Below are positions 28,384 to 63,430 of a stretch of 64,000 nucleotides of DNA, piece by piece (positions within the stretch are counted from its first letter, which is position 1; the number at the start of each line of letters is the position of its first letter). Both the position numbers and the translations under genes were made by a program. The stretch lies in assembly GCA_038087875.1 (NCBI GenBank), contig CM075994.1:6078001-6142000 (forward strand). The letters run 5' to 3'. The stretch comes from Malacoraja senta. Taxonomy: Eukaryota. The notes beneath the pieces were generated by a model. The model saw nothing but the letters and a program-made list of their open reading frames with translations. It made no database searches and was not told the DNA's origin.

Positions 28384-28396
28384 GTCTTTGGGGTTA

Positions 28397-37254: not shown

Positions 37255-37359
37255 ATGGTGAAGATTTTCGTGGGCAACTTGTCGCGGCCTACTTCCGTCG
37301 AGGAGATCCGCTCCCTGTTCGAGAAGTACGGACCGGTCAGCGAGTGCGACCTGATCAAG
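37255..37359 (+). CDS. rbm4: RBM4/Lark-family RNA-binding protein, coding exon 1 (N-terminal part of RRM1)
   Basis: ATG in context GAAGATGG encodes [35 protein letters not shown], closely matching the RBM4 N-terminus (MVKLFIGNL...EIRSLFEQYGKVLECDIIK). Ends at phase-0 donor AAG|GTGGGG (GT 37360-37361). Confidence 0.93.
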
Positions 37360-37899
37360 GTGGGGACGGGGACGGGGGAAGGGGACGGGGATTCGGGCCG
37401 GTGTCGCCCCGGGGGCAGTGGGACCCCGAGTTCATAAGGGCATAAGTGATATGTGCAAAATTAGGCCATTCGGCCCATCGAAAGACTACTCCGCCATTTA
37501 ATCACGGCTGATCTGTCTCCCTCCTAACCCGATTCTCCTGCTTCTCCCCATCACCCCTGATACCCGCACTAAACAAGAATGTGGAGGCCAAGTCGGGCTA
37601 TCTCTGCCTTAAATACATCTTCTTGGTTTCTTGGTCCTCCAAAATATTCCAAATGGAATTTAAACTGGAGGTGGTGGAGGGAGGACTTAAGCCAGAAAGG
37701 GTTTTTGGGAAGAAAGAGCTACCTTAAATTTAGTTGCATCTGGTTGGGTAACTATAGTAGGGTGGAGATTATTCCATACTTTAATTGTGCGGGGGGAAGA
37801 ATGAATTGCTGTACACATCTGTCTTGGTAGCTGGAATCACAAATTGGATCGAATGCCCTCGTCTGCTCCTAATTGGTTTGGGTTTGGGGTAGGTCTTGT

Positions 37900-39975: not shown

Positions 39976-42900
39976 TGTTAAGGTTCATGGATGAAAGGGC
40001 CTTTTACTTGTAGGTAAAGACGTCCACAGTTTAACCAATTTTTCCAATCCAGAGGTCATATTAATCAATTTCCGTGATAGACAGGCTGTCCCATAAAGTG
40101 GGAAGCAATCATCCAGAATTGCTCTGACTCTGATATACTTTGCTTAGCCCTCATCGGGAATATATAACAGTTAGATGTTACACAGCTCACATGTGAGGGA
40201 CAACAAAGGCCAAATAACAGCATCTCCTTCAGTTGTAGGTTAGCCTGATCAACCTTTCCCAGTTCTTCTCATCCCCAGGTGCATGCCCATAATCCACATA
40301 AAAATACGTCCCATTTATTGGACTCAGCGGCCACTAACACTAACCTTGGAGCAGTATACTATACTTAAGACGGAGTATACTTAAGGCTGTTCCTTAAGTA
40401 TATTCCGTCGCTTCGTTTGTCACAATAACGGGTTAACTGGGCTCTGGGGCAATTCACTAATTTAAGTCGTGGTATTTCCCAAATCCTGGTCTCTTACCTT
40501 CCATTCTAGCTTAAAAGAGGCCGTATACCATCCTTTAAATATGGGTCCCTGAGCTTGCCGTTGTGAAGGCACCCATTAGTTGCTGTTTTATTGCGAAAAT
40601 AGTGTACGGCCTGAACCTCAGTAAGGTTAAGGGGTATTGTCAAGAGGGAAGTGCATACACAACCAGTATACACTTATTATCACAAAGGGCAAATTCAAAA
40701 CTCATAATAAACAAATTATTTCACGAAGTTCAGTCCATTTCGGCCAACCCCAGAATAAAAAAGAAGGGTCATTAACCCCATTGTCCTTTTTTGTTCTCTG
40801 ATCTGTTTATAGTCAATCAGATGTATCCTCTTCATGGCAGTTGATGTTATTGGTAGCACCTGCTACAGTCCCTTTCAACACTGTCCCAATTTCTTCTGAT
40901 CCCAGTACCATATCAGTTCGTAGTCTGATAGTATGGACTCCTCCCTGTGTTCAACGGATAGTGGCTTCTTTGACTCTCATACCTGGGAATAACCCAGCTG
41001 GGGTTGTTCTAAAGCACCAAAATAGCTGAATACATGAACCCATTCTTGTCCAGTCTCAGTCAAGGCTTTACTTAAAAACTTTTTAGTGTCCTATTCATTC
41101 CCTCCACTAATCCAAAACTCTGCAATTAGTGGGAGATATGAAATCAATCTTTAACTACTGACTAGGCAGAGCCTCCTTCATCACCTTCCCTGTGAAACGT
41201 TTACCTGGTCAATCTGAAGAGGGACCCCCCCACTTAAATATTATCTCTTTGACTCCTTATCACAATTCTAGCTGTTCTATCTTAGTATGGGAATACCGTT
41301 ACCCAGTAAAGCAATCAATCAGTACTAAATAGTACCCTGTATTTTGTGACTAGAACAAGGGTCCTGTGAAATCTATCTATCTATCTATGTTGATCTGCAG
41401 GCTATACTCATTTTCCATTTGGCATGCCAATTATCTCATACTGCCCTTAACATCCCTGCTTCTAAGTTCACACTATACTATGGGGAGAGTATAAACTATA
41501 ATCCCCCTCAGTGTGTTGAGCTCTAAGATTTCCACTGCCCATGTTACTTATTCACGTACTTAAGCACATCAGTACAGCCAAGCTAACACTGGACTTTGCC
41601 TAGGGAACAACAAACAACTGTTCTCATTCTGTCTTTATAGTCTGTTACTACCACTTTTTGTATCCTTCATTATCACAGCACAATGGTAGTTTAGTCATAT
41701 ATAAGAATCCCAGTGCTGGGAAGGAGGTCAGGGATAGTTGATATTTTTGTCTGCAATAATCCAAATATGTTTCTCCTCCCCAATCTACTCTATCTCTCAA
41801 CATTTACTTCCCATAGTGATTTCTCTCAAACTACGGTCTGATGTAATCAACTAGCACAAAACACATGTTACAAGCTTCCTTCCACACATTTTAAGACAGG
41901 AAAGCTGGCTACTCTTGCATTCTAAAACACAAACACTGTCCTTACATCAACTCCATTGAACTTCAACAAGACAAAAATATCTTTATTTTCACCACATTAG
42001 AAAGAACATAATTTTAGATGTTCTTAATAATGTACTTTGTACATTTATGTACTTTTGTACTTTTCATTCTTTATGGGCACTTTGCCCCTGGCTATCTTCA
42101 GCTAAATAATCCACTTGTCTAAAAAAAGTTTTGAAAGTCGGCGCTTTATATACCCGCGTCACGCACGACAACCTCTTTTCGGCCATTGCCCAAGTGGGTC
42201 AGGCCCTTCAATCTATGCTTTATTTACATCACTTCTCATCCTTCTAAACTCCACAGAGCATGTCCAACTTGCTCATCCTTTCTTTTTAACATGGAATTAA
42301 CTTAACCCGAAATGTTCTCCTGAAATCCGCTTTTTTAAAACAAGCAACTTCATTTTTTCAACTACAAGGACACCCAGATCCCCTTGCACAGCTGTATTCT
42401 AAAGTTTAAATATTCTTATTTTCTATTCTTCCTCCCTAAATGAAAATATATATATATTTTCCTACATTATGATCCAACTGCCAAATTCTGTCTCAGTCAA
42501 CCTACACTTAACAATTTTATGGCATCATCACTTACTAACAAATTTGACTATAAAATAGTCTTGCTCTTTTCTTAAATCCAAATTAATAACATGGATGATC
42601 AATAACTGAGGTAGACAAAAATGCTGGAGAAATTCAGCGGGTGAGGCAGCATCTATGGAGCGAAGGAAATGGGCAACGTTTCAGGTCGAAAGCCTTTTTC
42701 AGACATCAGTTATTGATCATGCTATCATGATCCATAACTGATATGCTAGCATTCGCTCTTGTAGCACAAGTGGTATTCTGGAAACTTGAAAACAGTCTCT
42801 TTAAGAATAAGGGGTAGGCCATTTAGGACTGAGATATTAGCTCATCCAATCTCATCTAACACATGGCCAGTGTGGCATCCAAGTCTCCTTTTGAACTCAA

Positions 42901-45801
42901 TCCAAAAGATAAGAAATAGGAAGAAAAACTTAAAATACCAATAAGACAAAACAAACAACGTACATTTTTTCATCTCTCTGTTAAAAGTTAAGAGAAAATA
43001 AAGAATAAATTAATTTTCATAGATTACTAACGCACTTGCAAAGAACAAAGAAAATGAAAATAACCTTGTGTGACTCCACCTCCACACAACTACTGACTTC
43101 TTAAAGAGACACACACTACCTCTTAAAACACATTAGTCTACAAGGATTTCTTACATAAAAGAGCAAAAGCTCATTCAATTACATCCTATTTCATCTGAAA
43201 TATGGGATTTAATTCAACATTCATCAGAACCCATTCCTTAAAAATGTAACAATCTTTAAACTTACTTATTTTATACCTTTTTTTTCTCTCTGACATTCAC
43301 AAGTTGCCACACCTCATACAATATGCTAAATCTCACAGATATTCACACACTTTAAAACAATAAAATTATCACTCAAATGTAAAACAGTTATACACACCTC
43401 AAGGAAATCATTCTAACTCTTAAAACTTTGATACACCCTAATACGTTCATAAGATTGCCCACCATTTTACACATTTACTGAATTAACATGGAATTTTCAC
43501 AAGGAAAATGGACATCTTAATTAGGTTTTTAAGTTGTACGGTGTATCTCTATTGTTTTCCCTTATCAGCATGCGTAAGGGGGTGTGTATATAATAACAGG
43601 CAGAAAAATATCAATTACACAAATTTGTCCAAGAGGGGTGTGAGCCAGAGTCCGGTGGTGGAATCAATGGCACAGCCCTCTCGTTTCCATAGTCATTGCA
43701 CATAGAGGCGTCCCTCTATAATTCCTAAACCTCCCTCATTTGTCTGACAAGACCATTCTGTCTACTAGAATCTTTGGTTCTATGGGGACCAATGTACAAA
43801 ATTCGCAAGCTAGGACATTCCCCTGGGAGTCTTTGTCGTGGCCACTCATATGGGTATTGCACTTAATAATGGCTAGGTGGACTGGGAAGGCTGAGGCTAG
43901 TGTAGTGGTCAGCGTTGTCTTTAAGTTGTGAAAGTCTTCTTCTTGTTGGAATGAGAGAGTTAAAATGAATAAGAATTAACCAAGCCCACAAAACCCTCAT
44001 CTGCTAGGAATGGGCGGGCTGGTATGATTCACAATGGGTGGTCCAATTCCCTGTCAATCAGGATCCTGGGCACTGTGATTGGACAGTGATCCAGATTGTG
44101 ATTGGTCAGACTCCCTGTCATTCAGGATGTTGCCACACCCCATAACCATTGGGTCACTCACACACTCTCTTCTGTTCTTTCTCCAGCAGAGGCGAGCTCT
44201 GTGCCAAAAGTGGTTCGAAGGCAAGTTTGTTTCAAACTGTACAGGCTGTTGGCTTGTGATTTTAAAGTTCTCTGAGCAGCCTCAATTCTCATGCTTTTTT
44301 TTCTTTTTCCAATCTTTAATTTATCTGCAGTTTTCTCTCTCTGGTCATCTGCGTTGTTTAACTCTCTCACTGCTGATTTCAATTACTGCTCCTTCTCTTC
44401 TGCATCAGCCATTTCCCTTCTTTCTCATCTGCCTTTTCAGTCTCCGAGTCGCTATCAGTATCATTTTCATCTAGGGATACCCTTTTCTGGAGGGGTGCTG
44501 GGAGCCTCGCCCTCCCAGCGGGATCTTTTATGGGGAGGTGGTCTACACTATTCCCAACTTTATTCCTTCATTCCCCCTCTTCTATAAACAGGGTCACCAT
44601 GTCAGACAAGGCGTCTCTAGAGGACTTATCGGTACCGGGTTTGTTCTAAACCATTAATTGCTTGTTTTCTGAACTTTCTTAACAGCGCTTTCTCTCTCTA
44701 TCTTGGCCATTTTCACTTGTTCCTCTGCCCACTGGCATATTACTTTTAGGATTCAAATAACATATGTGTTGCACAGCATTCCCCTGTCACTTTAGTTCAA
44801 ATTGTTACCCATTATTCCAGTGTGTTTAAACATTTACTTAATTGTGAATGACAGGCTTTCTACCTGCGGAGCCAATCACCGACTACTTTCCTAGCAGCAA
44901 ATACGGGTGTTCCCCCGTCACTTTTATCTAGATTATTCCTCATAGCTGCGAGATTCTCCCAGCCCAGCTATTTTGTGAACGACAAACTTTTTTAGTTTGC
45001 GAAGCCAATTGCCAACTACTCTCTTAGTAGCAAAATACCTTACCAACAACTTTCCCAGTAGCAAAACGTCTTACTAACTACTTTCCTAGTAGCAAATTCT
45101 CTTACCAACTACTTTCCTAGTCGCAAAAATCTCAATACAGTTGGTCTTACCTTCGTTGTCTGCATCTAAGAATTTCGGCATGGCACCAGATCAACTACTA
45201 CGAAGGACCTAAGTTTTCCCAGGAGCTTCTTCGGGAGGTCGGTCTCAAGGGGTCCGACTGGTGCACTTTTTTCTCCCATCCGATCCTGCTCAAACTACGG
45301 CCTCTTACTCGGTCGTCTGTTGATGGTCCCAGCGAAATCCTGCCAACTATATGAAATGTTAAGGTTCATTTCTTAAAACAGACAACTCACAAGCTGTTAG
45401 ATAAACCAACACAAGCTTTACTGATCATTTAGCCAGCGAGAGTGCCACAGGATTCAAAGTCAAGTATGCAGCAGATTCTTAACCCCACCCCCCTCCCCCA
45501 GGCCACCACTCTAATGAATTAAGACATCCAAGGTACACAAAAATGCTGGAGAAACTCAGCGGGTGCAGCAGCATCTATGGAGCGAAGGAAATAGGCAGCG
45601 TTTGGGGTCGAAACCCTTCGGGCCGACCACATCCAACATCTTTTTATAGTATTACGGAAACATAGTCACATGTTTATACAGAGTTGGAGCAATGACGTCC
45701 AACACATCAATCAGAAACTTGATCAACATTTACAATTCTGTCTTAACAATGTATTCTTCAGTCAGCTACCAACCAGAAGTTCCTGCTCACAGAAACCTAC
45801 G
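39976..45801 (-). mobile_element. Decayed endogenous retrovirus, antisense within rbm4 intron 1
   Basis: Integrase motifs on the minus strand: IDFTGPL...YYLVLIDCFT (~41300-41380), GVPLQID.Q..RFTGKV (~41180-41230), QSFGLVEGMNRTLK (~41080-41130). 5' LTR ~45357-45801 with CTATAAAAA and AGTAAA. tRNA-Ser-like PBS at 45336-45354. The LTR end TGTTAAGGTTCAT occurs at both 39976 and 45357. Confidence 0.8.
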
Positions 45802-45942
45802 AGACCCTTCTTCAGACTATTCCCCCCATTCTTCTTGAATGGGGGGATCAGTACAGGATGAATGGGGGGGGGGGGGGAGGTCAGGACAGTGTGGATCGGA
45901 GGGTCTGCAGGATGACTGGGGGATCACTACAGGATGAATGAG

Positions 45943-47793
45943 CAGGGCTCGAAATTAGAGGTTGCCCGGGTGCCACTGACCACTCAAAGCACCGCCCGGG
46001 CAACCTAAACACTGAGTCATTTTGCCCGGTTTGGCAACCAGATACTGGTTTGTACCGAAGAGAGACACAAAAAACTGGAGTAACTCCGCGGGTCAGGCAG
46101 CATCTCTGGAGAATAGCAACGTGATGGCGGTGACGGCTGTCGTGCGGGGCAAAGATACTAGGTGCGGGATGAGGAAGGGTCGGAGCAAATGACGGGCCCC
46201 GAACAGCGGCAGCAGCGGCCGCGACCGCGGCTCCATCTCCTCCTCCCGCACCCCGCCCCCCTGATAAGGGCCGCTGCTTGTAAATCCACTAACGGCGATA
46301 ACCGCTTTCAAAACAAACCCTCCCGCACTTCGAGGGAGGGAGGGGAGGCCTCGAAGTTTACAAGCAGCGGCCCTTATCAGGGCTGGCGGGGGGCGGGAGG
46401 AGGAGGCAGTGGAGCCGCTGCTGCCGCTGTTCGACTTTTTTACCGCCCGGCCCCGCACCTTGCTGTTGGCTGGCGGAGGAGGAGGCGGTGGCGAGGAGAT
46501 CCCAACGGCCAAGGCAATGGGGCGATGTTGTCCGAGGAGCGCTGACCTTCCTTCCTCCCCGCCTCGCCCCCTCTCTCTCTCTCTCTTGTACGCCGCCTCC
46601 ACCCCCTTATCCTGGGACCCCTCCACTTCATCCCACACTGATCCCCATTCCCGCCTCTATTCGGTCCTCACTGACATCCCCTGTGCTCCCCTCCCCATCT
46701 ACCCCCCCCCCCATCTATTCATCCTGCGCTGATCACTCTATCCACCTCACATTGATTCTCCACACTGTACTGACCCACCTCCCCCCATTCATCCTGTACT
46801 GATCCTCCCATTCAAGAAGAATGGGGGGAACAGTCTGAAGAAAGGTCTCGACCCGAAACGTTGCCTATTTCCTTCGCTCCATAAATGCTGCCTCACCCGT
46901 TGAGTTTCTCCAGCACTTTTGTCTACCCCCATCCATCCCGTACTGAACCCCCCCCCCCCATTCAACACCACTGACATCCCCGGTGCTCTCCCCTCACAAT
47001 TTTACCTACTCCAACCAACACATACTAATTCACCTGCCTCAATCCATCCATTCTGCACCGACTGCCTTCTAACCCACCCCCCCCCCCCCCCGCCATCTAT
47101 CCACACCTCCCTCCCTGACCCTATTGTGCTGGAAATGTCTTCAGAGCGAACTTTGACTATGTTTGATAACGGAATGCAATCAAATGTGTTTTAATTCCCA
47201 ATGTTATTATTTGTTTTAATACATTAAGATGGATTCATTAAATTGTGAGTGAACACGTGAAACATTAAAACGCGCAGTGTTCGATTGTCACTGCTGCCGT
47301 TGACACGTTATTACAGAATTCATTTTAACAGCAAATCAATGCTCTTAATATGGAGTATCAGTACTGTAGTTATTAATGAGCAACAGTCACAACTATACGT
47401 ACGCATGTATTTTCCATGGTCCAGGATTTAATTGACACAGGTTGATCATATGCTGAATAATCCACCACATTGTTGTTTGGAAGTGGAAAGAACTAATAGA
47501 AATTGCATTAATTGCAACGTGTAAATACTGCCTTATAATTTGCTGCATGTCATTGTGGGATATATCATGTCTTGATTGGTGAATATGTTTAGTTTGTGAC
47601 TTTATTTGAAGCAGAAATAATATGTGAATGCTTCATTGAGTATAATTCCGACCACGCACTTCGTCCGAGCACATTATTGCATGCGTCATGCAAGCCATCT
47701 TAAATGACCACCTAAACTGTCATTTGGCAACCTAAAAAGCTGCCAAGGTTGCCCGGCTGGCAACAGGGGAAAAAAAGTTAAGCGAGAGCCCTG
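45943..47793 (+). mobile_element. Non-autonomous DNA transposon (TIR CAGGGCTC), inserted into an antiparallel copy of itself
   Basis: Ends CAGGGCTCGAAATTA / TTAAGCGAGAGCCCTG with flanks ATGAG / ACGAG. The host copy spans ~45801-45942 plus 47794-48954 (ends AATTTCGAGCCCTG). Confidence 0.82.
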
Positions 47794-48414
47794 ACGAGGG
47801 GATCAGTTTAGGATGAATGGGGGATCAGTACAGGATGCATCATGAGGGGATCAGTACAGGATGCATGAGGGATCAGTACAGGATGCATGAGGGGATCAGT
47901 ACAGGACGAATGGGGGATCAGTAAAAGATGAATGGGAGAATCACTACAGGATGGTTGGGGGGGATTTGTGCAGGGTAAATGGAGGGTGGGTCAGTACGGG
48001 ATGAATGGGAGGCTCAGTGCAGTTTGAATGGGAAGGGGGTCAGTACAGATGAATTGGGGGACCAGTGTAGGATGGATGGGGGGGTGGCAGGAGAATCAAT
48101 GCGAGGTGGGTAGGGTGATGAATAGATTGGGGGGGTATAGATGGGGAGGGGAGCACAGGGGATGTCAGTGAGGACTGAATAGAGAATGGAATGGGGATCA
48201 GTGCGAGATGGAGGGGAGGGGTCCCAGGATAAGAGGGGTGGAGGGGGGCGTACAAGAGAGAGAGAGGGGGGGGAAGGAAGGTCAACGCTTCTCAAACAAC
48301 ATCGCCCCGCTGCCTTGGCCGTCCCTGTCCAACGCCAAAGGGTGTGGCGGTTGGGACTCCCACGCCCCGCCTCCCCTCCTCCGACAGCAAGGTGCGGGGC
48401 CGAGCGGTGCAGCT

Positions 48415-48442
48415 CAAAGATCCTATAGCTATAGGATCTTTG
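48415..48442. mobile_element. 28-bp TIR-only remnant of the 31951 MITE family
   Basis: Perfect palindrome CAAAGATCCTATAG-CTATAGGATCTTTG flanked by GTGCAGCT / TTGCAGCT. Confidence 0.85.
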
Positions 48443-50139
48443 TTGCAGCTGCTTCAGACGGCGGATGGAGGCCTCCGCCTCCCTCTCCCCCTCCTCCGGC
48501 CTCGGCGTGCGAGAGGGGTTGTTTGAAAGCGCCGTTGGCGGATCTGGGCGATAGCGGCCGCTGCTTGCAAATCCACCAACGGCGCTTTCAAAACAACCCC
48601 TCTCGCACGCCGAGGCCGGGAGGAGGGAGGGAGAGAGAGGCTTCCTTCCGCCGGGCGGGATGCAGGAGGAGGAGGCGGTGGAGCCGCTGCTGCGGCTTTT
48701 CGGTGCCCGTCATTCGCTGCGACCCTTCGTCACCACGCACCTAGTATCTTTGCCCCGCACAGCCGCCGCCGACACGAAACGTCATGTTCCTATTCTCCAG
48801 AGATGCTGCCTGCCCGCGGAGTACTCCAGTTTTTGTGCCTATCGGTATAAACCAGTATTGATTGCCAAGCCGGGCAAAATGACTCGGTGTTCAGGTTGCC
48901 CAGCGGCACTTGGGTGGTCAATGGCACCTGGGCAACCGCTAATTTCGAGCCCTGAAGTACATCCTCTCCCACCATTGTAGATGATATTCTACTTGGCACG
49001 TAAAGGAACAGTTTGAATGCTGGCCTCCAATTTCTTGATTCCCACATTTCTACAGCACAGAATTTCAAAGCTTTTATTTACTCAACCCAAAGAAGCGATC
49101 ACGTTTGGTCGCGCTAGGCGCATGCTGGTGGGACAGGCCCTTTAGTCTTGGGACAATTTTGTCTTATAACTATTGTTTTCTAATATTCGGCCTTCTCTTT
49201 CCACAAGCTATTTAATATCACGAATTTAATCTTCATTTTCAGACTTGTTTCTGCTTATCAGCTGCCCTAGGAAGTCAACATTTCCCAATCAACTCTCTTT
49301 GTTTCTTACACAAAAAAGTCGTATCAAGTTAGAAACAGTTTGCTTTAGCCGATCAGCGCTGGTAGTTCCCTAAGCAATCCATACTTGTTCAAGAGATTGC
49401 TAAAATTGATAATTATTTCAAAAACTTTTGCTTTTCATGTGCATAAACTCGCCTTGAATTTTCTTGTTTACTGCAGCAAGTGTGGACAATTCACCAGACA
49501 TGTTGTCCAGCGTTGCAGGGAACTGGTGAAAGAGGCGAACCATTTGGTCATGTGACAAGCATCTCTTCTACCCCTTGTTTCTCCCCAGGTCCCCAATAAT
49601 TTGCTCTTTAAAATCCATCCCTATCAGTCATTTTGTATTAACAAGGAACTGCAGTTGCTGGGTTACACCAAAGCAAGACACAATGCTGAGATAACTCAGC
49701 AGGTAAGGCAGCATCTCTGGAGGAATGCTAATAGGTGATGTTTTGGTCTGGACTGAAGAAGGGTCCCAATCCGAATGTCACCTATCCATGTTCTCAGAAG
49801 ATGCTGCCTGACCCACAGAGTTACTCCAGCATTTTATGTCTTTCCATCAGTCTCTTACTTGCGTACCCTCTTTGACAACTCTTTAGTGTTGATTTTCACC
49901 TGTGCCAAGTGCACCGAAACATTCTGCTTTGTTAAAGGTGTGTTAGAATTGAAGTTATTTGCACGGATAGAAGTTTACTGTAAGGCAATTTGTTTTTGGA
50001 AGTCTGAATCTTGATTTCCTCGCCCCATTTTGTTGCTATTTTCCTAGAATGTAAAATGCAAACACATGTGCAATTGTTTGTGTATAGGAGGAAGAGATTT
50101 CATTTGATTTATAACCTGTACTTCCTTATCCTTCAACAG

Positions 50140-50444
50140 AATTATGGCTTTGTGCACATGAAGGACAGGGAGGCAGCAAAGGAGGCAATTGAGAATCTGC
50201 ATCACTATAAGCTGCATGGCTCTGCATCAATGTCGAGGCCAGCAAGGGTGGGTCCAAGTCGTCCACCAAACTTCACGTGGGTAACTTAAGCAGTGGTTGC
50301 ACCAGCCAGGAACTGCAGGCCAAATTCGAGGAGTATGGGACGGTCCTGAGTGCGATATCGTTAAGGACTACGCCTTTGTGCATTTGGAGAGGAGTGAGGA
50401 TGCCATGGAAGCCATCAGGGGACTTGATGGCACAGAATTCAAAG
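50140..50444 (+). CDS. rbm4: RBM4 coding exon 2 (rest of RRM1 plus RRM2), with two apparent 1-nt deletions
   Basis: Acceptor cttccttatccttcaacag|AAT. Read across three frames it gives [27 protein letters not shown](x)[42 protein letters not shown](E)[31 protein letters not shown]. Phase-1 donor AAAG|GTGAAA. Frame breaks at ~50220 and ~50348. Confidence 0.92.
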
Positions 50445-52109
50445 GTGAAATGCCTAGAAGTGGATTAATCACAATGCTTTATTTATAGAGATGCACCAAT
50501 TGGGTGCATATGCATGCACTGTTGCTTAATTCTGTCTAAGTACTCGGCCATATCTGTGGCATGTTCTTTTGAGCCCTGTAGTGCTTCCTTTAATGACTAC
50601 AGTGATAAGTCTTGACTAATTGCTCTTTGCTGCCACAATGAACAACAGTCTGATTTTCATTCATGTTTGAGGGCTTTCAATTTCTGCATGACATGCTTAT
50701 TCAGTAGGATTTCTTGCAGTTTTAACATTAATTTCGATCAGAACTACAGGCTGTAGGAATATTTTGAAGCTTGTGAGCACCTCCCTCTGTGGACTCTGAT
50801 AGTGTTGCTTTGTTTCAACAGCACCTATCAGAAAGCATCATGGTCAGGATTTCCAGTGGGGAGCATCTCTAGATTGATTGGATGTTAAGATATAGCTCCC
50901 AGGGCTAAACTGAATCAAGGGCTATGGGAGAAAGCGGGAACGGGCACTGATTTGGGATTATCAGCCTTGATCGTATTGAATGGTGCAGGCTCAAAGAGCC
51001 AAATGGCCTACTCCTGCACCTATTTTCTATGTTTCTCTGAAGCAGGCAGAAAATAGTTTGGTTAATTTACGAGTGGCACGGATCCTGAAAGTTCACAACA
51101 ATAGTATCACTGCCCAGCCCACTGCATGGTATCTCTATGCACTTTGCATTAGTTGGCTTAGTTTCCCCCACTACCTTGTTGGGTCATGTCTACTCAGTGA
51201 CTACTGCAAGTGTGATATTTTGTGAATGTAGTGCACACGGATATTGAGAGCAAGTTAGGAGATTATTTATTTTCTGAGTCCATTGGGCATAACTAATAAT
51301 TCTATAGCTAAATTTGCACAGTGTAGGATTATTCCTGAATGGGGAGTATTGTACTGCTCCCACATTAACTCCTAATAGCGTCATTTAAGATTGTTAAAGA
51401 TCTTAAGAAGTTATTTATGTGTTGTAATCAGCAGCTGTCGTGGAAGTGATTGTATCAGTCAGATCTTTGTAGCTAGCCATGATACTCTTAATACCCTCCT
51501 AACTGCCTGGTTGTAAGTATGCCTCTTCGCTGGTTAAATTCTACTGGCAGTTCATTGGCAAGTTAAATACATGCGCTTCTCGACCTGCCTGTGGCCAATG
51601 TGGGTCTCTGCATCAGAGTTTTCAAGTGGTCTCTGCGTTTAATAGCAAATTTACGCGTGTGCAGTAGCACTTTTGTGTTTTCGATTTGTGTAACATCTGA
51701 TTTGCGCAAGTGTTGGTGGGTCATAACCATTGCGTAAGTCGGGGGGCGTATGTATTGAATTATTTTCAGTAATCCTTTCCTGTGATTTTTCTTTCTTCCT
51801 CTTCATGTGTGTGCACCCCTGATTTTGTAACATTTAGACAACAGGTTGTAATTATGTTCCAGTCTTGCCCATAGATGTTTAGGAGAGGTTCTTCCTCCTG
51901 AAGACACCTGTGGCAAATGGAGAAGTTTCACCTTGACTAAATAACTAAGTTCCAGAACAATAGAGGTCTCTTGTGTCACCAAAGTGCAAGAGAGAGCCAT
52001 GTCTGCTTTTACCAGTTTACTGAATTTAAAAATTTCCATTGGGTACCAAAGGGCGAGTAGAATGTGTTTTTTTTGTCAGAATATGAAATGGTGCTGGGGG
52101 GTGGCGTCT

Positions 52110-52470
52110 TCTTGAAATATATAAAATTCTTAAGGGATTGGACAGGCTAGATGCAGGAAAACATTTCCCGATGTTGGGGGAGTCACAGTTTAGGAATAAG
52201 GGGTGGGCCATTTAGGACTGAGATGAGGAAAATCTTTTTCACCCAGAGAGTTGTGAATCTGTGGTATTCTCTGCCACAGCAGGCAGAGGAGGCAAATTCA
52301 TTGGCTGTTTTTAAGAGAGAGTTAGATATAGCTCTTGGGGCTAACAAATCTAGGGATTTGGGGAGAAAGCAGGAACGGGGTACTGATTTTGGATGATCAA
52401 CCATGATCATATTGAATGGTGGTGCTGGTTCGAAGGCCGAATGGTTTACTCCTGCACCTATTTTCTGTTT
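52110..52470 (+). mobile_element. CR1 3' fragment
   Basis: PFRTEMRKIFFTQRVVNLWYSLP..FKRELD plus the CR1 3' UTR. Confidence 0.85.
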
Positions 52471-52744
52471 TTTTTAATGTAATGCTTCGCATTTCAAGTC
52501 CTTATCGCAAAGAGCTCTTATGGGTCAGTTATGTTGCTAATTTGCTTGGGAAAAGCTTGCCTGCCCACCAATCATTTCCATGAATGTGTTTGAACTGGCC
52601 CGGACAACCTTCAGAAAGTTATTTAGGTCCACCGGTCTCGAAATTGACAGGCATTCTCTAGTTGATGCTTAATTTATACTAATTTTAGCTGGCAATTATA
52701 GCACCCATTCACAAATAGTGTTGTTGATTATGGAAGGACTCCCA

Positions 52745-53860
52745 TTCAGTTCAATTCAATTCAATTGCAATGAACTTTATTTTTCTGTTAGGAACTTTGG
52801 TTTCTGCAGCCATTCAACAAAAAGAAACAATTTTGCAAGACACACAACCAACTCAATTCACACAGACATCCATCACAGTAAATTCCTCCTCACTGTGATG
52901 GAAGGCAAAGTCTTGTCTCTCCCCTGCTCTCCATCCTCTCCCGATGTTAAAGCCCCGGCGGCGATGGTAAGTCCCGTGGCCGTTAAGCGCGCCGGCGATG
53001 TAAGGCCCTCTCGGGTTGTTCTCAGTCCCCGCACTCAGGGCGGGAGAAGCTGCCGCCGCGGGAGCTCCGAAAAAGCGGTCTCCCACCAGGGACCCGCGAG
53101 GGGCTCCCGATGTCACCGTTAATGTTTTCGTGACTTCAGCAAATCACAAAATACCCGGCAAGCAAATTGAAGAGTAGCCTGGAAGAGGGAAGCGAGTTTC
53201 CAAAGGTTTCAAATGTCTTTTATTGTCACATGTACCAATTAAGGCACAGTGATATGCAAATTGCCATAAAGCCATACTAAAAAAAAAGGCAACAAGACAC
53301 ACAACTACATAAAAGTTAACATAAACATCCACCACAGTGGATTTCCCACATTTCCTCACTGTGATGGAAGGCAATAAAATCCAAGCTCTTCCTCTTTATT
53401 CTCCTGTGGTCAGGCAGGCAAACCATCCGTCGGGGCGATCGAAGCTCCCGCAGCCAGCGGTCGAAGCTTCTGCGGCTTGGAGCTCCCGAAGCCGGGTCTC
53501 TAACCAGCGACCACGAGCTCCACGATGTTAATGTCCGTAGGATACCGCGGGTTGGAGCTCAGAGGTCAATCCCTGTCAAAGGGATCGCCAGCTCCGCGAC
53601 GGTAAGTCCCACAGGCTCCCGTGGTTGGAGCTTAGGAAGTCAGCCTCTGGCAGAGGCCGGCAACTCCACGATGTTAGGTCGCAATGCGGACGGAGATGCG
53701 ATACGAAAAAAAATTGCATCTCCATCGAGGTAAGAGATTTAAAAAAGTTTCTCCCAACCCCCCACCCCCCCACATAAAACAAGCATAAAGAACACCTAAA
53801 GCATACATTTAATACATACTATAAAAACAACAAAGAAAAAAGGACAGACAGACTGTTGGT
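52745..53860 (-). mobile_element. Two copies of the GC-rich non-autonomous retroposon family
   Basis: cctcactgtgatggaaggc core at ~52888 and ~53354. Similar to 27504-28383 and 25141-25860. Confidence 0.65.
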
Positions 53861-55032
53861 AACTGTTGCTTGAAAATGCAGCAGTAGTGTAGTGTCCATG
53901 TAATTTATTTTCGTGACATTCATTGAGAAACAGCTATTGGCTTGGCTGTGAAAAAGTTATCTAAGCCTGTTCTGTGGCCGTCACTACAACCACGATCCTT
54001 AAGCACGCCGACTCCTCTCCCCATCAAAATACATTGTGGGAGCTGTATGTCAGAGTTGATGCCAAGGTAAACTTTTGGTACTGTGTAATCATGCCATCTC
54101 TAAGTTCTGCCTCTTTCCACATACGCAACATCTACTTTGTTCTGCCTGACATAATCTTTCAGTTTTCTGTATCCTAACTTACACCAAATCACATAAATGT
54201 GGTTGCTGTTGGAGGTATTCTTGGCCTCCCAGTAGTGCAGAGACAGGGCTGGTGACTTACAGCACCAGAGACACCAGTTCGATCTTGACAATGGGTGCTG
54301 TCTGCATGGAGTTTGTACGTTCTCCATGTGACCACGTTGGTTTTCTCCGGGTGCTCCGGTTTCCTCCCACATTCCAAAGACATGCAAGTTAATTGGCTTC
54401 TGTAAATGTCCCTAGTGTGTAGGATAGTACTACTGTATGGGTGATCGCTGGTTTGTAGCAAACTTGGGCCTGTTTCAGCACTACATCTCTAAACTAAAGT
54501 AATCCTGGTCATCCTTTGTCCGTTATATTTTATGGGATTTAATCATTACTAAAGTAGAGAAAGTGACGGCAAACTGCTGGTGACTGAATATTGATTACAC
54601 CCGTGTGTGCATTACGCGTGGTGCTATCTGTGTGTGTGCACGTATAGCTATGCCACTTTACTGAGGAATTGTGGATAGATATGAACACTGCTTTCAAACA
54701 TCGTAATTCTGACATGCTGAAAGATAGATTTTTGAGGCAACTGAAAGTGATTAGAGCTAAGGCACTCCCCTGAGAAACTCTTGGAAAAGTGCTCTGAGGC
54801 TAAGATTTCTATCAGCAACCACGTTTATGTGTAATGTATGACTTCAACCACCAGCCAGTAAACATTTTTTTCCTCCGCTTGGTTTCCTTTGCTTAGGGCT
54901 CCTTGCTACAAAATTTGGTCAAACCCACCCTCTAATCATTGAGGCAGGCTCTCCTGCCTCTGGAATTTACCTTTATATTCATATTATACCAATGCTGAGT
55001 GAATTGCTTTGTCCACATCCCAACAGTGCATT

Positions 55033-56645
55033 TGGTGGTGCAGCGGTAGAGTTGCTGCCTTACAGTGCCAGAGACCTGGGTTCGATTCTGACCTCAGGTG
55101 CTGTCAGTACAGAGTTTGTACGTTCTCCCTGTGACCGCGTGGGTTTTCTCCGGGTGCTCTGATTTCCTCCCACACTCCCAAAGACATGCATGTTTGTGGG
55201 ATAAATGACTTCTAGAAATTGTAATTTGTCCCTCTTGTGTAGGATAATAATAATAATAGATTTTATTTATATAGCGCTTTTCAGGACTCAAAGTCGCTTT
55301 ACAATTGAGAGTCAGGAATAAACAAAACAAAATAGAGCAGTAAGACAGAGGGGGGGGGGGGGACATGGGACTAAGGGTATGCAGAGGTGAAGAGATGGGT
55401 CTTGAGGCGGGACTGGAAGATGGTGAGGGACTCAGAATTTCGGACCGGTTGTGGGAGGGAATTCCAGAGCCTGGGAGCTGCCCTGGAGAAGGCTCTGCCT
55501 CCAAAAGTGCAGAGGTTTGATTTCGGAGTGGAGAGGAGACCAGCTGATGTGGATCTGAGGGACCGTGAGGGTTGGTAGGGGGAGAGGAGGTCAATGAGAT
55601 AAGGGGGGGCCAGGTTGTTGAGGGCTTTGTAGGTGAGGACCAGGATTTTGTAGGTGATCCGGTGGGAAATGGGAAGCCAGTGAAGTTCTTTGAGAACTGG
55701 GGTGATGTGGTGCCAGGATTTGGTGTGGGTAATGAGTCGAGCGGCTGCATTTTGGACCAGTTGGAGTCGTTTGATGCTGCTGGAATTGATTCCGAAAAGA
55801 AGAGAGTTACAGTAGTCCAGTCGGGAGGAGATGAAGGCATGGATGAGTCTTTCAGCAGCGGGGGTGTGAGAGACGATCTGATTTTTGCAATGTTGCGGAG
55901 GTGAAAAAATGATGTTTTGACAACATGGCGGATGTGAGGCTCAAGGGAGAGGGTTGAGTCAAGGATCACGCCAAGGTTGCGTGCCTGAGGAGATGGGGAG
56001 ACAGTGGTGCCGTCGATAGTGAGAGTGGGGTTGTTAATTTTAGTGAGTGTTGATTTGGAGCCAATGAGGAGAAATTCTGTTTTGCTACTGTTTAATTTAA
56101 GGAAGTTGAGTTGCATCCAAGATTTGATGGCTGATAGGCAGGAGTTGATATGGGAGAGAGGGGGGTGGTGGGGGGACTTGGTGCTGAGATAGATCTGGGT
56201 GTCATCAGCATAGCAGTGGAAGTCCAGGTTGAAGTGACGGAGTATATGACCAAGGGGGAGGATGTAGATGGTGAAGAGGAGGGGACCAAGAACGGAGCCT
56301 TGGGGTACGCCTTGAGTGACAGTGGCTGTGGCAGAGGTGTGGTTATGGAGAGAGATGAAGTGGGATCGGTTGGAAAGGTAAGAACGGAACCAGCTGAGTG
56401 CAGAACCTTCAATGCCAAGGTCCCTAAGTCTGTTGAGCAGGATGTTGTGGTTGACGGTATCGAAGGCTGCACTCAGGTCGAGGAGGATGAGGATATTGAG
56501 GGAGCCAGAGTCAGCAGAGGTAAGGAGGTCATTGAGGACTTTGAGGAGAGCAGTTTCTCCTCAAAGTCCTCAATGATAGTGCTAGTGTACAGGGTAATCG
56601 CTGGTCTGCGCGTGCTCAGTGGACTGAAGGGCCGTTTCCCACTGC
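55033..56645 (+). mobile_element. V-SINE split by an L2 insertion
   Basis: ggtggtgcagcggtagag, B box gggttcgattc, V-domain gagtttgtacgttctccctgtgaccgcgtgggttttctccggg. Resumes at ~56575. Other V-SINE copies at ~11365, ~39450 (-), ~54230, ~58400, ~60560. Confidence 0.8.
55246..56576 (-). mobile_element. L2 LINE, 5'-truncated
   Basis: Minus strand gives LLDLSAAFDT, GVPQGSVLGPLLF, CYADDTQIY, NFLKLNSSKTEFLLIG, and an (ata)n tail. Confidence 0.9.
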
Positions 56646-59384
56646 AGGTTAGCACTGTTAAAAACATTGTCAGTTTAAACCGTGTTGCTGAGGTAATTCT
56701 CCAGGAATCTTTTGCTTTCAGGAAGCAGACTGTATCTGCAGTTTGGCATGTTTGCGCCATTGATGCCACTTTTGACATTCATTTGCTGCCTTCCACCATC
56801 ACGGAGGATAGGGATCCTTTTGGAGTTCTTGTTTCCATTGAATGTGGCAGCACTCATTTGGTGTAGGGTAACAATTCTACAAATTGTAATTTATCCCTAG
56901 TGTGGAGGATAGTGCTAGTATATGGGATGATCGTTGGTCGGCCTGTTTCCACGCTGCATCTCTAAATTCTACTAATGTGTAGAAAAGATCAGTCTGAAGA
57001 AGGGCCTCGACCTGGAATGTCACCCATTCCTTCTCTCCAGAGATGCTGCCTGTCCAGCTGAGTTACTCCAGCAGTTTGTGTCTATCTTTGCTGAGGTAAT
57101 TCTCCAGGAATACGTGTGTCAAAGGTTATCAGGAGAATGGAGTTAGGAGGGACAGATAGATCAGCCATGATTGAATGGCGGAATAGACTTGATGAGGCAC
57201 GTGGCCTAATTCTGCTCCGATCACATGATCTAATTCTGCCTGTTTTGGATTGTTTTTATTCTTCAGCAAACATGTAGTTCTGTGTATTTTACCTGAATGG
57301 TACCTCTTGGGTATCCCAGGGGCGATATCGTTATGCCCTTCTACACTCCCAGAATAAGGATTAGTCCCCTGGCTTGATGGCCGATAATAGAGTGAGCTAT
57401 ATGCAGGGATATGAGGTGACGGATTGTGCTAAAACACAATTTTGCTATCAGCAATGGTCCATAAAATTTTGTGCATGGCCCATTTAAAATGCCATTTTAT
57501 AAAATTCTATAAAGTGGACCTATTTCATAAAGCATTGGTAGAGCAATGAGACGCAAAATGCTGGAGTAACTCAGCAGGTCGGGTAGCATCTCTGGAGATC
57601 GTGAATAGGTGATATTTGCGGTCGGGACCCGATCTTTAGTCTGAAGATGGGATCCGACCTGAAATGTCACCTGTCCATGTTCTCCATAGATGGTGCCTGA
57701 CCTGCTGAGTTACCCTGGCACTTTGTCTTTTTTTTAAACCACCATCTGCAGCTCTGTGTCTCCATGTTACAAGATGGCCCTTCATCACCATAAAGAATGC
57801 AGTGGTCTTTCCTTCTAATTAGTGCCGTGGAAAATTGGTGTTCAGCAGGCAAATGGGCAAGAATGCAATGTTAGGCTTATCCATCTTGTAATTAACTCCT
57901 CCCTTATCACAGACCCAGTCTGACAACTGTGTTTATCAGACCTTGGACAGCTATGCCAGTGGTGCTAGTAACAAGCTGTTTTTGGTCATGGCACTGAAGT
58001 CTCCCACCCAAAGTATATACTGTGCCCCTTAATGTTTATCTACTTATTGTTACCAGTGCTGTCACCATTTGTTGCTCGTACCTAATTGCTCAAGAATGCT
58101 GCCTCTTTTAACTACTCCAGTACTTTCACCATGTGGTTGTTAGAAATTCTAGAATTTGTATACAGCAATTGTATTTCCAAGTCAGGATCATATGTAATTT
58201 GGTTCCTTATATTCTCCATGCTGGTAGAGGTCACGAGATAGGAATCAACTACCTAGTTGCGTAACTGCAACGCATATTGTAGATCGTGACACATCAAAGC
58301 TTCTATGTGCTTTCAGTGGAGTGAATAAATATTGAGTGTGAGGCGGACTGGTTTTTGATTGAGCAGGCTGCTCTGTCTCCAATGATGTTTTGTTGCAGTT
58401 TGACCGTGTGAGTTTTCTCTGGATGCTCCAGTTTCCTCTCGTATTCCAAAATCTTGCAGGTTTGTAGGTTAATTGGCTTCTGTGAATTGTCCCTAGTGTG
58501 TAGGGTAGAACTAGTATACTGGTGATTGCTAGTCGGTGTGTACTCAGTGGGCCAAAGTGCCTGTTTTCACACCATATTTCATCCAGGTAAATCACATTCT
58601 ATTCTTGTGGATTATGGATTGTGGGAAGGTTGATGGTTTCAAGAGAAGAGTAGCTTGCCTCGGAATGCTTGTGCTTGCACATGCTTTATCTCCCACTTCC
58701 CTATTGGAGCATTTCCCTCCTTTATGTCCAGTTTGACCAGGTCTCTGTCACCCGCTGCTTTGATGTGCATCAGTCTTATTTCTCACCCCCTCAGGAAATA
58801 GGCTCTTTTCCCTGTAAGTTGTGATGAGACGGAAGTAAGCTGTCTGACAAAACCCTAACTGGACATTGGTGAAGCAGATATTCAGTTTGGGGTTTGCTTG
58901 GACCATTTGGCTCACTTAGTAAGGAGGAGTTTTTTAGTCACTTTCCTGATTGATGGTTGGCTGATCAGGAGCTAATTATCTGTTCACATATTTGTTGTGC
59001 TGCTGCAAGTAAGAATTTCATTGTCATGTGCCCCAAAACGGAACAATAAAACACTTGTCACTTATGCGGAAGAAGGGACTGCGGGTGCTGGTTTACATCG
59101 AAGATAGGCACAACATGCTGGAGTAACTTGGTGGGCCAGGCAGCATCTCTGGAGAAAAGGAATAGGTAACATTTTCGGTGAAGACCCTTCATCAGACTGA
59201 AGGGTCTCGACCTGAAATGTTGTCTATTCCTTTTCTCCGGAGATGCTACCTCACACTTCGCTTTTAATTGGACTGGATGTAACCTGGTTTTTGGGGTCAG
59301 GACATTGTCTTACAATGTAGAAAATTGATCAGTAGATGTCAGTGTTGCATCTGTTCTGGGACAATAGGCTGCAATTGTAGTGAA

Positions 59385-59935
59385 GTTTCTTGTCACATGT
59401 ACTGAGCTACAATGAAAAGCTTTTGCTGCATGCTCAGTGGAAAGACAATACATTATTACAATCGAGCTATCCACAGTGTACAGATACAAGATAAAGGGAA
59501 TAATATTTTTGTTTAAGATAAAGTCCAGTAAAGTCACATTATTAATAGTCTGAGGGTCTCCATTGAGCTCAGGACTGCTCTCTGGTTGTTGTTGATAGGA
59601 TGGTTCAGTTGCCTGATAACAGCTGGTAACTCCTGAATCTGGAGGTATACTTTTTCACAGCTCTGTACCTCTTGACTGATGGAAGAGGGGAGAAGAGGGA
59701 GTGACTGGGGTAAGACTCGTCCTTGATTATGCTGGTGGTCTTGCCGAAACAGCAGATGTGTAAATGGAGTTGGAGATTGGTTTGTGTGATGATCTAGGCT
59801 GCGCCCACATTTCTCTGCAATTTATTGTGGTGTTTGGATGGAGCTGTTTCCAAACATCCTGAGGAAATGCTTTCTATGGCACATCTGTACGAGTTGCTGA
59901 AAGTTGTTGGGGACATGATGAACTTCCTAATTCTC
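59385..59935 (-). mobile_element. Rex1/Babar 3' fragment
   Basis: Collinear with 8545-9250 (tccttgattatgctggtgg, ttcagttgcctgataa). Confidence 0.75.
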
Positions 59936-60892
59936 AGGTGTCATGGTGACAAGAGGATCAAAAGCAAAAGTCAAGAACAGATTGTTACAGCGGAGGGGGA
60001 GGAAACATGAAAGGTAAAGTAGTTAGTCCCTGCGCTGAGAGAATGTAACAATGATCCAGTTCATCTTTTCCCTCGATCAATAAAACTGATCATTGTAATT
60101 ATGATGGACAGTTAGTTGTTACACTTTAACATGTTGTCAGCTTGTCAGCAGAGAATGGTTGAAAGTGGTAACAGTTTCAATCCCGACTAGATTTATAAAT
60201 TCCATGCAGTACTCATGAATAGATCTAGAAGGGTCCCGATCCGAAACGTCACCTAATCCATGTTCACCAGAGGTGCTGCCCGATCTACTGAATTACTCCA
60301 GCACTTAGTTGTTTTTTGGAAACTGGCATCTGCAATTCCCTGTGTCTAAGGACACTGATCTGTTTGGGTACAAGACTTGAACCTTTGATTTATAGGGCTT
60401 TATATTACCAGAGCTTAGTTACATTGCAACATAATATGGGAGTGTAAAATGTTTTTAGTATATTTTTGACCAGAACATAAAGAACGGGGTGTACGATGTG
60501 CCAGATATTATGAGAATGACTTTAATGGCCTGGTATTCTCACTTTAACCCTGTCAATTGCTTATCTGTACAGAGTTTGTACATTCTCCCCGTGACCTGTG
60601 TGGGTTTTCTCTTAAGATCTTCGGTTTCTTCCCACACTCCAAAGACGTACAGGTTTGTAGGTTAATTGGCTTGGTATAAATGTAGAATTATTATCCCTCG
60701 TTTGTGGGGTAGTGTTAATGTGCGGGAGATTGCTGGTCTCAGTGTGCCGAAGGACCTGGTTTTGCGCTGTATCTCTAAACTAAACAAAGCTTCCACTCTG
60801 CATCCCCCAGTGTTTGAATTCTTCTTAGATGTGTCTCCTTTTTGGAACAACAAAAACTGGAATTGTATCTGCTGTTGTTTTATTATCTAGGG

Positions 60893-61351
60893 CAGGGGTC
60901 GGCAACCTTGTTCTGCATAGGGGCCGGGACGCATGTCTGTGAGCAGATGGCGGGCCACATCTATCACGTGTACACATGGATCCCGCCCCGGATGGCAGGC
61001 ATCAAATCACGTGTTCTCACAAGGTAGACAAAAATGCTGGAGAAACTCAGCGGGTGATGCAGCCTCATGCAATCCTTGTATGTCTCACCTGCTGAGTTTC
61101 TCCAGCATTTTATCTACCTTAGATTTTTCCAGCATCTGCAGTTCTTTCTTAAATGTATTCACAGAAGGTGCGCGGCCGTGCCAGCGGCTTTGCGCAGGAT
61201 GCGGTACAGCCAGAGCACGGCTGCGCTCGGGGGAAAAGCTGGGGGTGCTCGGCGGGCCGGATGATTACGGGGGGAAAAATCCGCCTGCGGGCCGGATGAT
61301 TTCGGGTTACATGCCGCATTCGGCCTGGGGGCCGTAGGTTGCCGACCCCTG
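60893..61351. mobile_element. hAT/Charlie-type MITE containing a PLE hairpin
   Basis: TIR CAGGGGTCGGCAACCT / AGGTTGCCGACCCCTG. Perfect 8-bp TSD ATCTAGGG, resembling the Charlie NTCTAGAN preference. PLE insert at ~61021-61150. Confidence 0.92.
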
Positions 61352-62111
61352 ATCTAGGGGGATAGGGCATGGAAAATTCAAACAGGCATTTGGCATGTTT
61401 TGTGGATGTCGACAATAGGCTCAGAAGTTCACCTGGATATTGTTAGAACTGTTTCTGTGGCTGATTGCATCTCTCTACAACTGTGTTAAGCTGCCAGCAA
61501 TATTTTGTTGGGTTATCTTCCAATCCACAATAATTATGTCAACAACAATGTAATTTAGGCAGCTTGTACTTGGTAATAAATGTGGTCAGTTAGCAAAAAA
61601 CATTGAGCTGCATTAATCCAACTAACACTATAATTTCAATATTGATAATTGATTTCATATTTTGTATCTGTTGTAATAAGTGATGCGTTACATTTTATTT
61701 GTGCTTTACTTTGTTGCAAAAAGTTAAATCAAGACCATTGCTCATTTACAACTCGACATAATTGCATTTGGATCATATATTCTATCGTCGTTTCCTCATA
61801 CGCAAGTAAGTGTATGTTTTCACACTAATTGTGTTTTTGCATTTGCTAGTTCGGAGCTATGACGGCAGCTAGTAATGTCGTGGAAAAGCTGTGGCGAAAG
61901 AAAACTAAGTCATCACTGCTCAAGAAATAAGCTTTGCACATCCTGGCGTGGTTCAGATAAACGATGAATTTGTCCTGTGCTGTTAGTTAAGCTGTAATTT
62001 GTTTTTATTGTTTGACAAGCAAAGCAAAGATCCTCACTGAAGCTGATGTGTCAGCCAGTGCATCCGGTTAATGTTCTTCATACTGATATTGTATTGCATC
62101 TCCTTTTAAAG

Positions 62112-62854
62112 GCAAACGGCTGCAAGTTGAACTGTCCAAGAGTCGGCTGCGGATGCAACCTGGGATGGGCGAAAAAAACGGCTGTTTCCGGTGTGGTAAA
62201 GAAGGCCACTGGTCTAAAGAGTGTCCCAAAGATCAAGGTGGTCTCGAAAGCAGTTTTGATGGCAACTTCTCACGCGATTACCTAGATCCCTTTTCGATGA
62301 CCGCGCGCCCCATAGCTGGGTATGGAGACCGCCCTCTATACGATGAGCGATACGGGGCCGCCGACTACTACGAGAAGTATCGGGCAGGAGCGTACGGAGC
62401 GGTCGGCGATTCTTATGAAAGAACGGCGCAATATACGGCTCTTGGCACTTCCCTGCGAGATCGTATCTCCGGTGCGGGGAGCCTATACGAGCGGCGGCCA
62501 TTGTCGACTCCCACTACCTATTACGGTCGCGACAGGAGCCCTATACGACGGCAAGCGTCCATGTCTGCTGTGGGCAGTGGATATGGTTTCGAGCGCGGTG
62601 GGCTTTCTCCATCTGCGTATGACCATACGAGTACTGCCGCGAGGGATGCGTACTCTGCAGCCCGGTACTCTGCAGCCCAGTATTCTGCAGCCCAGTACCC
62701 TGCAGCCCATTACTCAGCTGCACAGTACTCTGCTGCGCAGTATTCTGCTGCTCAATACTCAGCTGCCCAGTACTCGGCTGCTCAGTACTCTGCCGCGCAG
62801 TCCTCTGCTGCTGCCGCCGCCCAGTACCCTAATGCCCAGTACCCCACATACTAA
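62112..62854 (+). CDS. rbm4: RBM4 coding exon 3 (end of RRM2, CCHC zinc knuckle, low-complexity C-terminus)
   Basis: Acceptor ctccttttaaag|GC completes the Gly codon from exon 2. Reads (G)[38 protein letters not shown] (C-x2-C-x4-H-x4-C), contains the RBM4 motif [11 protein letters not shown], and stops at TAA 62852-62854. The corrected CDS would be 384 aa. Confidence 0.95.
62651..62800 (+). repeat. Coding 15-nt tandem repeat, (Y-S/P-A-A-Q/R/H) x10
   Basis: Ten consecutive 15-nt units such as tactctgcagcccag, tattctgctgctcaa and tactcggctgctcag. Confidence 0.95.
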
Positions 62855-62866
62855 CTTCAGGTGAGG
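62855..62866 (+). other. Splice donor of a 3'-UTR intron, 6 nt after the RBM4 stop codon
   Basis: TAA CTTCAG|GTGAGG (GT at 62861). Candidate acceptors are ttacttcccattgcag at ~63746 and ttcttgtcttgacaag at 64000. Confidence 0.7.
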
Positions 62867-62974
62867 ATCATTTAACTTTGATAATGTCTCTGTACTTTCA
62901 TTAGCTTGTGTTGAAGAGGGTTCAGAGGAGGTTTTCGAGAATGATCCCCGAGGGGGGGGGGGGGGTGTTGTGGG

Positions 62975-63430
62975 GTGGTTGATTGGGTTAATGTACGAGG
63001 AGCATTTGGTTGCTCTGGGCCTGTCCTCGCTGGATTTTAGAGAGATGGGAGTGGGGGATCTCATCGAAACCTGCCGAATAATGAAAGACTCAGATGGAAT
63101 GGATATGGAGAGGATATTTCTACTAGTGGGAGAGTCTAAGACCGGATGGCACTGACTCAGAATAAAAGGACATACCTTTTAGAAAGGAGATGAGGAATTT
63201 ATTTAGCCAGAGGGTGGTGAATCGGTAGAAATCACTGCCAAATGTGATGATGGAGCTCCAGTCTTTAGATATTTGAAAACATAATAACATTAATTAATAA
63301 GAGTGTCAAAGGTTACGGGGAGAAGGCAGGAGAATGGGGTTGAGAAGAAAAGATTGATCAGGTATGATTGAATGGCGGAGTAACCTCAATGGGCCGAATG
63401 GCCTAATTCAGCTCCGATGTCTTATGCACT
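62975..63430 (+). mobile_element. CR1 3' fragment in the rbm4 3'-UTR intron
   Basis: GLMYEEHLVALGLSSLDFR...GDLIETCRIMK...IFLLVGESKT plus the CR1 3' UTR. Confidence 0.82.

Follow-up and report, generated by a model that had tools for sequence, protein, structure and literature searches.

The window, i.e. the whole stretch of 64,000 nucleotides that was analysed, harbors on its forward strand a gene of the RBM4 family (hereafter paralogue A), whose coding part consists of three exons with GT/AG borders, a further intron starting 6 nt past the stop codon. Exon 1 (coding part 37255..37359, GT donor at 37360) runs from the initial methionine to the first half of RRM1, and 33 of its 35 residues are identical to those of the protein P0002; exon 2 (50140..50444, 305 nt) carries the rest of RRM1 and most of RRM2; exon 3 (62112..62860, up to the GT donor) encodes the end of RRM2, a CCHC zinc knuckle, a predicted disordered C-terminal region, the repeat discussed below and the stop. 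The knuckle (62183..62224) matches Pfam PF00098 with 30.7 bits at a cut-off of 20.8, and the order RRM-RRM-CCHC, also retrieved by Pfam in the orthologue P0127 (RRM_1 as two stretches and zf-CCHC), agrees with the preliminary description of the product as a CCHC-containing RBM4. The R[D/E]RSP motif is present in exon 3 as RDRSP (62528..62542), equal to the SRPK site of vertebrate RBM4 according to the available part of PMC3602429, and it is followed by a GYGFER anchor (62579..62596), which sequence comparison identifies as the counterpart of the YERT(RLSP) segment of RBM4 and RBM14 and downstream of which the repeat lies. Exon 3 is identical at 241 of 246 and 242 of 246 residues to the 384-aa "RBM4B-like" RefSeq proteins of Leucoraja and Amblyraja, respectively, and, judged by this identity, the gene is their orthologue and the DNA comes from a skate. 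Two A copies occur in these skates (P0124-P0127, P0002-P0003), of 384 aa and of 369-374 aa in both Leucoraja and Amblyraja, the window gene being of the 384-aa type. No second member of the RBM4/RBM14 family was found within the 64-kb window, so that RBM14, called a neighbor in the preliminary description, was not seen there; the paralogue appears to be linked to other RBM4 copies.

Exon 2 is 2 nt shorter in the window than in orthologues, its reading frame being broken by single-base gaps near 50221 and 50346, which are probably assembly errors. An assembled contig (record 9 of X18) has 305 letters over 303 window bases of exon 2 and then passes directly into exon 3, and another one (record 16 of X2) has 325 letters over 323 window bases across this exon. 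Contigs of the run X1 differ from the window by 0-2 substitutions, yet their alignments with it contain numerous gaps (for instance, 11 in 1128 nt and 6 in 475), which indicates that the window carries many indel errors; none of the X1 pieces listed lies over exon 2, and the two extra bases are thus known from contigs of relatives and not from the source species. Considering these extra letters and the richness of the window in indels elsewhere, we dropped the pseudogene reading, and the gene is very probably intact. Two more contigs (record 31 of X5 and record 15 of X18) align gaplessly across the repeat and part from the window at 62862, at the donor past the stop; X5 and X18 are taken as RNA runs, a label that is guessed although their contigs skip introns. 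Since the rate of single-base indel errors against the X1 contigs is high over 50050-63000, frameshift findings from this assembly should be treated with caution.

As to the introns, the one at 37360-50139 splits RRM1 after residue 35; in the Callorhinchus model P0022 the residues immediately preceding this point are missing, which hints at a common intron, and mammalian RBM4 is not known to have it. This first intron contains, on the reverse strand, a low-GC stretch (39900-44000) that by eye looks like a decayed LTR element and has no Pfam match, and the second one contains a LINE reverse transcriptase (55094-56560, reverse strand; RVT_1, 92.9 bits). Pieces of a Gypsy-like retroelement are located at 25800-32000 of the reverse strand, with a 200-N gap (26289-26488) and a sub-threshold aspartyl protease match.

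The repeat (62651..62800, forward strand) consists of ten 15-nt units, translated into 20 residues followed by six copies of YSAAQ; TRF assigns to it a period of 15, 10.8 copies, 82% matches and no indels. Its downstream part (62801..62854) is Ala-rich and, as translation and comparison of tails reveal, comprises a short poly-Ala, one further pentad, a terminal Q-Y-x-x-Y motif and the TAA stop (62852-62854). The architecture is therefore the one given in the preliminary description, and its statement that the units differ mostly at third codon positions also holds, as a dN/dS-type check among them demonstrates. All ten DNA units are distinct and encode three peptides; third positions account for 17 of the 19 departures from the unit consensus; pairwise pN/pS between units equals 0.081, or 0.096 with transitions weighted threefold; and 9 of the 12 distinct changes are synonymous against 24-28% of synonymous sites (binomial p of 3e-4 to 1e-3, indicative only, since the units share ancestry and are non-independent). 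The YSAAQ repeat is real and is selected as protein. Its alternative reading frames are partly open, but homologues do not encode them, and an Rfam search gave no matches.

When the part of exon 3 outside the repeat was used as a query and the clusters were looked up, 37 members of paralogue A in seven clusters were obtained. Seven of them are RRM-only isoforms, and the array is present in 29 of the 30 that bear exon 3, the sole exception being a partial model with two units. For comparison of the tails, the window protein was combined with 23 of the 29 database proteins (six isoform or duplicate entries were dropped), representing 19 shark and batoid genera. The 24 tails contain from 6 to 19 in-register pentads each; the distance between successive tyrosines is 5 in 238 of 294 gaps; tyrosine leads 225 of 232 pentads, a figure that is partly circular because the counting rule favors it; and alanine occupies position 3 in 186 and position 4 in 184 of the 232. 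Among the 476 RBM4/RBM14-family proteins compared, three or more such units are found only in A proteins (30 matches), mammalian RBM4 being devoid of the repeat, as had been stated. The split between sharks and batoids is roughly 270-300 million years old, and the repeat, in frame and with its excess of synonymous changes, is kept on both sides of it. The stingray orthologues P0007, P0144, and P0146 (Mobula, Hemitrygon, and Hypanus) have 19 pentads with interleaved YSPGR/CSPGR units, which we take to fit the S-P-x-R consensus of CDK type. Two RefSeq isoforms of Scyliorhinus canicula, P0129 (X3) and P0132 (X2), are shorter within the repeat region, by 20 and 15 residues; alleles, internal splicing or artefacts of read alignment may account for this.

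The terminal motifs tallied over 186 proteins provide grounds to suggest where the array came from. The C-termini of ordinary RBM4 proteins follow the pattern YD..Y-xxx(x)-[R/Q]-Y-(S)-x-[Y/F] (as in carp, YAAMR-YAY, and bat, YEREQ-YADRAR-YSAF), in which it is the next-to-last Tyr segment that the pentad resembles. This points to local amplification: by sequence resemblance, the array likely originated from the tail of RBM4 itself. Vertebrate RBM4/RBM4B and Drosophila Lark share with paralogue A the RRM-RRM-CCHC order, the RLR..PGMG linker, the DYYE.YR block, RDRSP, the [R/Q]-Y-x-x-[Y/F] motif at the end and a low-complexity C-terminus that varies between lineages (PMC3602429, available part). 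Proteins of the RBM4/Lark group are further characterised by control of splicing through CU-rich RNA and by phosphorylation by SRPK. What distinguishes paralogue A is the array of 6-19 YSAAQ units at the extreme C-terminus, as opposed to the poly-Ala (mammalian) or Pro-rich (teleost) tracts of RBM4, and the restriction of the A/B subfamily to cartilaginous fish among the proteins compared. The proteins as such are already known, being present in RefSeq as "RBM4B-like," and so is the turnover of RBM4 C-terminal low-complexity tracts between lineages, described in PMC3602429, whose species list, as far as the available part goes, includes no cartilaginous fish. In the literature searched, mostly outside subscription papers, we found no description of the YSAAQ tail in RBM4 of sharks or other cartilaginous fish.

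We suppose that the YSAAQ array goes back to tandem amplification, in the ancestor shared by sharks and rays, of the short Tyr-x3/4-[R/Q] stretch that stands next to last in the RBM4 C-terminus, and that later the number of units would have drifted (6-19), the tyrosine and the 5-residue period being kept. On this account the RRMs and the knuckle of paralogue A bind RNA, and the array would most likely act as a multivalent tyrosine tail, uncharged and for the most part disordered, whose weak contacts with itself or with other RNA-binding proteins could set the nuclear compartment of paralogue A or its partitioning into condensates. We regard this account as a whole as evenly poised between being right and being wrong. 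The function of the tyrosines as stickers, considered separately, is put forward by analogy and might equally hold or fail: the RBM14 domain forms amyloid-like hydrogels (PMC4539981), Tyr-to-Ser mutation abolishes the droplets of zebrafish Rbm14b (PMC6796953), and human RBM4's C-terminal domain sets its speckle vs. paraspeckle location (PMC4267627), all three sources being taken from their available parts. Such prion-like traits as uncharged composition and even aromatic spacing are present in the A tail, its disorder coming from weak AF2 output: with a 22-row alignment, pLDDT is about 28 for the tail and also below 50 for the real zinc knuckle, which makes the predicted tail disorder weak evidence. 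Several features count against the stickers. With 13 Tyr in 67 aa, against 27 YxxQ over about 360 aa in RBM14, the array is short; the tyrosine fraction over the post-knuckle region is 13.4% vs. 11-12% in plain RBM4s, i.e., the gain is modest; the spacers are conserved, and the tail has no glycine. The account as a whole is further weakened, besides the poor AF2 performance, by the low-confidence helix (residues 28-61, pLDDT about 60) predicted for the tail folded alone, by human RBM4 chimeras, in which splicing outcome is dominated by the N-terminal half (PMC3602429, available part), and by the AU tests discussed below, which do not reject a clade of A and RBM14. The ESM Atlas gave no usable match.

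The main rival to the sticker function, possible though clearly the less probable of the two, is that the array represents a tandem short linear motif or an amphipathic helix docking on one folded partner, such as an import receptor or a splicing cofactor, so that multiplication of the terminal motif would serve avidity and not condensates. The resemblance of the unit to the conserved terminal segment of RBM4 speaks for it, as do the spacers, whose alanines at positions 3 and 4 are conserved beyond generic sticker-spacer needs, the helix obtained with the isolated tail, and the nuclear localisation signal carried by the RBM4 C-terminal domain (PMC3602429, available part). Yet import signals of the types considered are scarce: the PY-NLS pattern occurs in 2 of 24 A tails, and the TNPO3-type motif [YWF]-R-x2,3-[YWF]-x2,3-[YWF] (as defined in the available part of PMC12075686) in none of the 24. 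The RSY-type TNPO3 signal of CIRBP resembles the A tail as a C-terminal tyrosine-periodic motif in an RRM protein but needs Y-R and spacers of 2-3 residues. The threefold variation in unit number and the helix-breaking YSPGR insertions of stingrays also disagree with a docking helix or motif.

It is unlikely that the array arose by slippage and is almost neutral, being tolerated only as long as it extends the protein in frame and without charge, while purifying selection purges stops and frameshifts and homogenisation of units keeps the motif. Copy number does vary, low-complexity tracts of RBM4 do turn over between lineages (PMC3602429, available part), and unit 3 has two amino-acid changes in the window relative to two close skates; however, ten DNA units that all differ and retain the peptide (pN/pS of about 0.09) are the opposite of what DNA homogenisation produces, and the motif and its period are kept in all 19 genera, so that this explanation is already weakened. 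Still less probable is ordered self-assembly into a cross-beta fibre or a pentapeptide beta-solenoid, in spite of the strict period of 5 and of a pattern that we take to resemble the Rfr consensus of pentapeptide repeats, more so in paralogue B of Heptranchias. The amyloid-like hydrogels of the RBM14 domain (PMC4539981, available part) would also fit such assembly, but the Pfam pentapeptide families gave no match, PF25296 ("Decapeptide") remained sub-threshold (26.7 bits vs. a cut-off of 45), and neither of the two AF2 models contains beta structure.

The comparison with RBM14 bears on the ancestry of the array. Like the A tail, the YxxQ domain of tetrapod RBM14/CoAA is made of uncharged Tyr/Ala/Gln/Ser repeats behind two homologous RRMs, and the compositions are similar (19% Tyr, 39% Ala, 16% Ser, 15% Gln, and 1% charged residues in A; 9, 27, 18, 11, and 3% in mole RBM14), except that the A tail, unlike RBM14, lacks glycine. 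The unit and the period are different (YxxxQ and 5 in A; YxxQ and a modal period of 12 in RBM14), as is the length, about 67 aa against 150-380 aa. The position differs as well: the RBM14 array lies before the YERT-type anchor, between RDRSP and YERTRLSP, where we counted 27 motifs in mole, 26 in turtle, 13 in caecilian, and 6 in Xenopus (the available part of PMC6796953 gives 27 in mammals, 8 in Xenopus, and 3 in zebrafish Rbm14b), whereas in the A protein the corresponding interval comprises 12 residues without a single tyrosine, and the array follows the anchor, with no YxxQ downstream. Lungfish and coelacanth RBM14 have no YxxQ between RDRSP and YERTRLSP, and a Tyr/Gln array is likewise missing from the hagfish RBM4-like protein and from paralogues C and E of elasmobranchs; the YxxQ array of RBM14 thus seems to have expanded in tetrapods, and the shark array separately.

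Elasmobranchs have at least five kinds of RBM4-family proteins: besides A, these are B with a Tyr/Ala tail upstream of the anchor, C with a plain tail, the divergent D, and E, a candidate RBM14 orthologue by its RBM14-like start and YERTRLSP, in which a Tyr/Gln array is lacking. Linkage of A, B, and D to each other, and of C with E, is suggested indirectly, by contigs of equal length. The chondrichthyan E proteins (P0441-P0443, P0290) possess a CCHC knuckle and are annotated as RBM4-like; since the knuckle is also found in sturgeon and teleost Rbm14 rows, it cannot alone serve as a marker of RBM4. The linker RLR..PGMG of the A knuckle, on the other hand, is of the RBM4 type and is missing from all seven RBM14 rows checked. 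ML trees join A, B, and Callorhinchus (bootstrap/SH 100/99 and 96/99) and place RBM14 in its own clade apart from A (98/96 and 100/99); the RBM4 clade including A received SH/bootstrap of 97.8/95 in one tree (66 rows, two outgroup rows being half-aligned) and bootstrap/SH of 88/99 in the second, and was unresolved in the third. The AU tests, of low power with 147-177 columns, reject none of the RBM14 groupings (A+RBM14, p 0.166 and 0.086; A+B+RBM14, p 0.13; E+RBM14, p 0.259 and 0.221), so that the trees alone do not settle the relation of A to RBM14; on the sequences compared, the position of the array settles more. The least probable explanation, that a Tyr/Gln domain already present in the RBM4/RBM14 ancestor survives in RBM14 and, as the array, in paralogue A, has for it the similar composition and the non-rejected AU grouping and against it the different position, unit and period, the proteins listed above that have no array, the ML topology and the RBM4-type linker. 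Of the two options left by the preliminary description, ancestral state and convergence, the former is hence unlikely, and the array is probably convergent with, and not homologous to, the YxxQ domain of tetrapod RBM14; the label "RBM14-like sticker-spacer domain" is apt only as to composition, and this is not RBM14's domain.

Paralogue B and the only A/B-group gene found in Callorhinchus (P0022, grouping with B) share with A the sister position in the trees, Tyr-periodic Ala-rich tails and the QYSAY end. In B, however, the expansion is located between RDRSP and the anchor and consists of DYAAA/NYATT units, and in Callorhinchus the tail is made of YxxS tetrads. Paralogue B of Heptranchias (P0017) has eight tyrosine gaps of exactly 5, at a site different from that of the A array; by site and unit, these and the Callorhinchus tetrads are apparently independent Tyr-periodic expansions.

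In general, the history of this repeat can be traced: it appears to have come from a short motif at the protein terminus, after which selection maintained it throughout an entire vertebrate subclass. Should the tail drive condensation, it would offer an unusually regular natural model (a tyrosine every 5 residues, 6-19 copies) and an example of repeated convergence on RBM14-like chemistry within one gene family; otherwise it adds a further instance to the turnover already known for RBM4 tails. The finding opens no new mechanism. A bolder proposal, tentative and rather doubtful, is that a prion-like condensate domain was created independently in sharks and rays, through amplification of the motif that ends an RBM4 duplicate, their probable RBM14 counterpart E being without a Tyr/Gln array. 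Were it true, tyrosine-periodic tails would have arisen at least three or four times in the RBM4/RBM14 family (A, B, Callorhinchus, and tetrapod RBM14), the Ser-Pro-Gly-Arg units of stingrays could make the tail kinase-switchable, and nature would have supplied, in the A proteins, a series of 6-19 stickers at constant spacing, suited to studying the rules of valence and the functional replacement of RBM14.

One more observation concerns a third clade of the RBM4 family, knuckle-less and "lark-like," which is represented in non-mammalian bony vertebrates (P0342, P0359, P0445, P0448, P0449, and P0454) with a support of 99.9/100.
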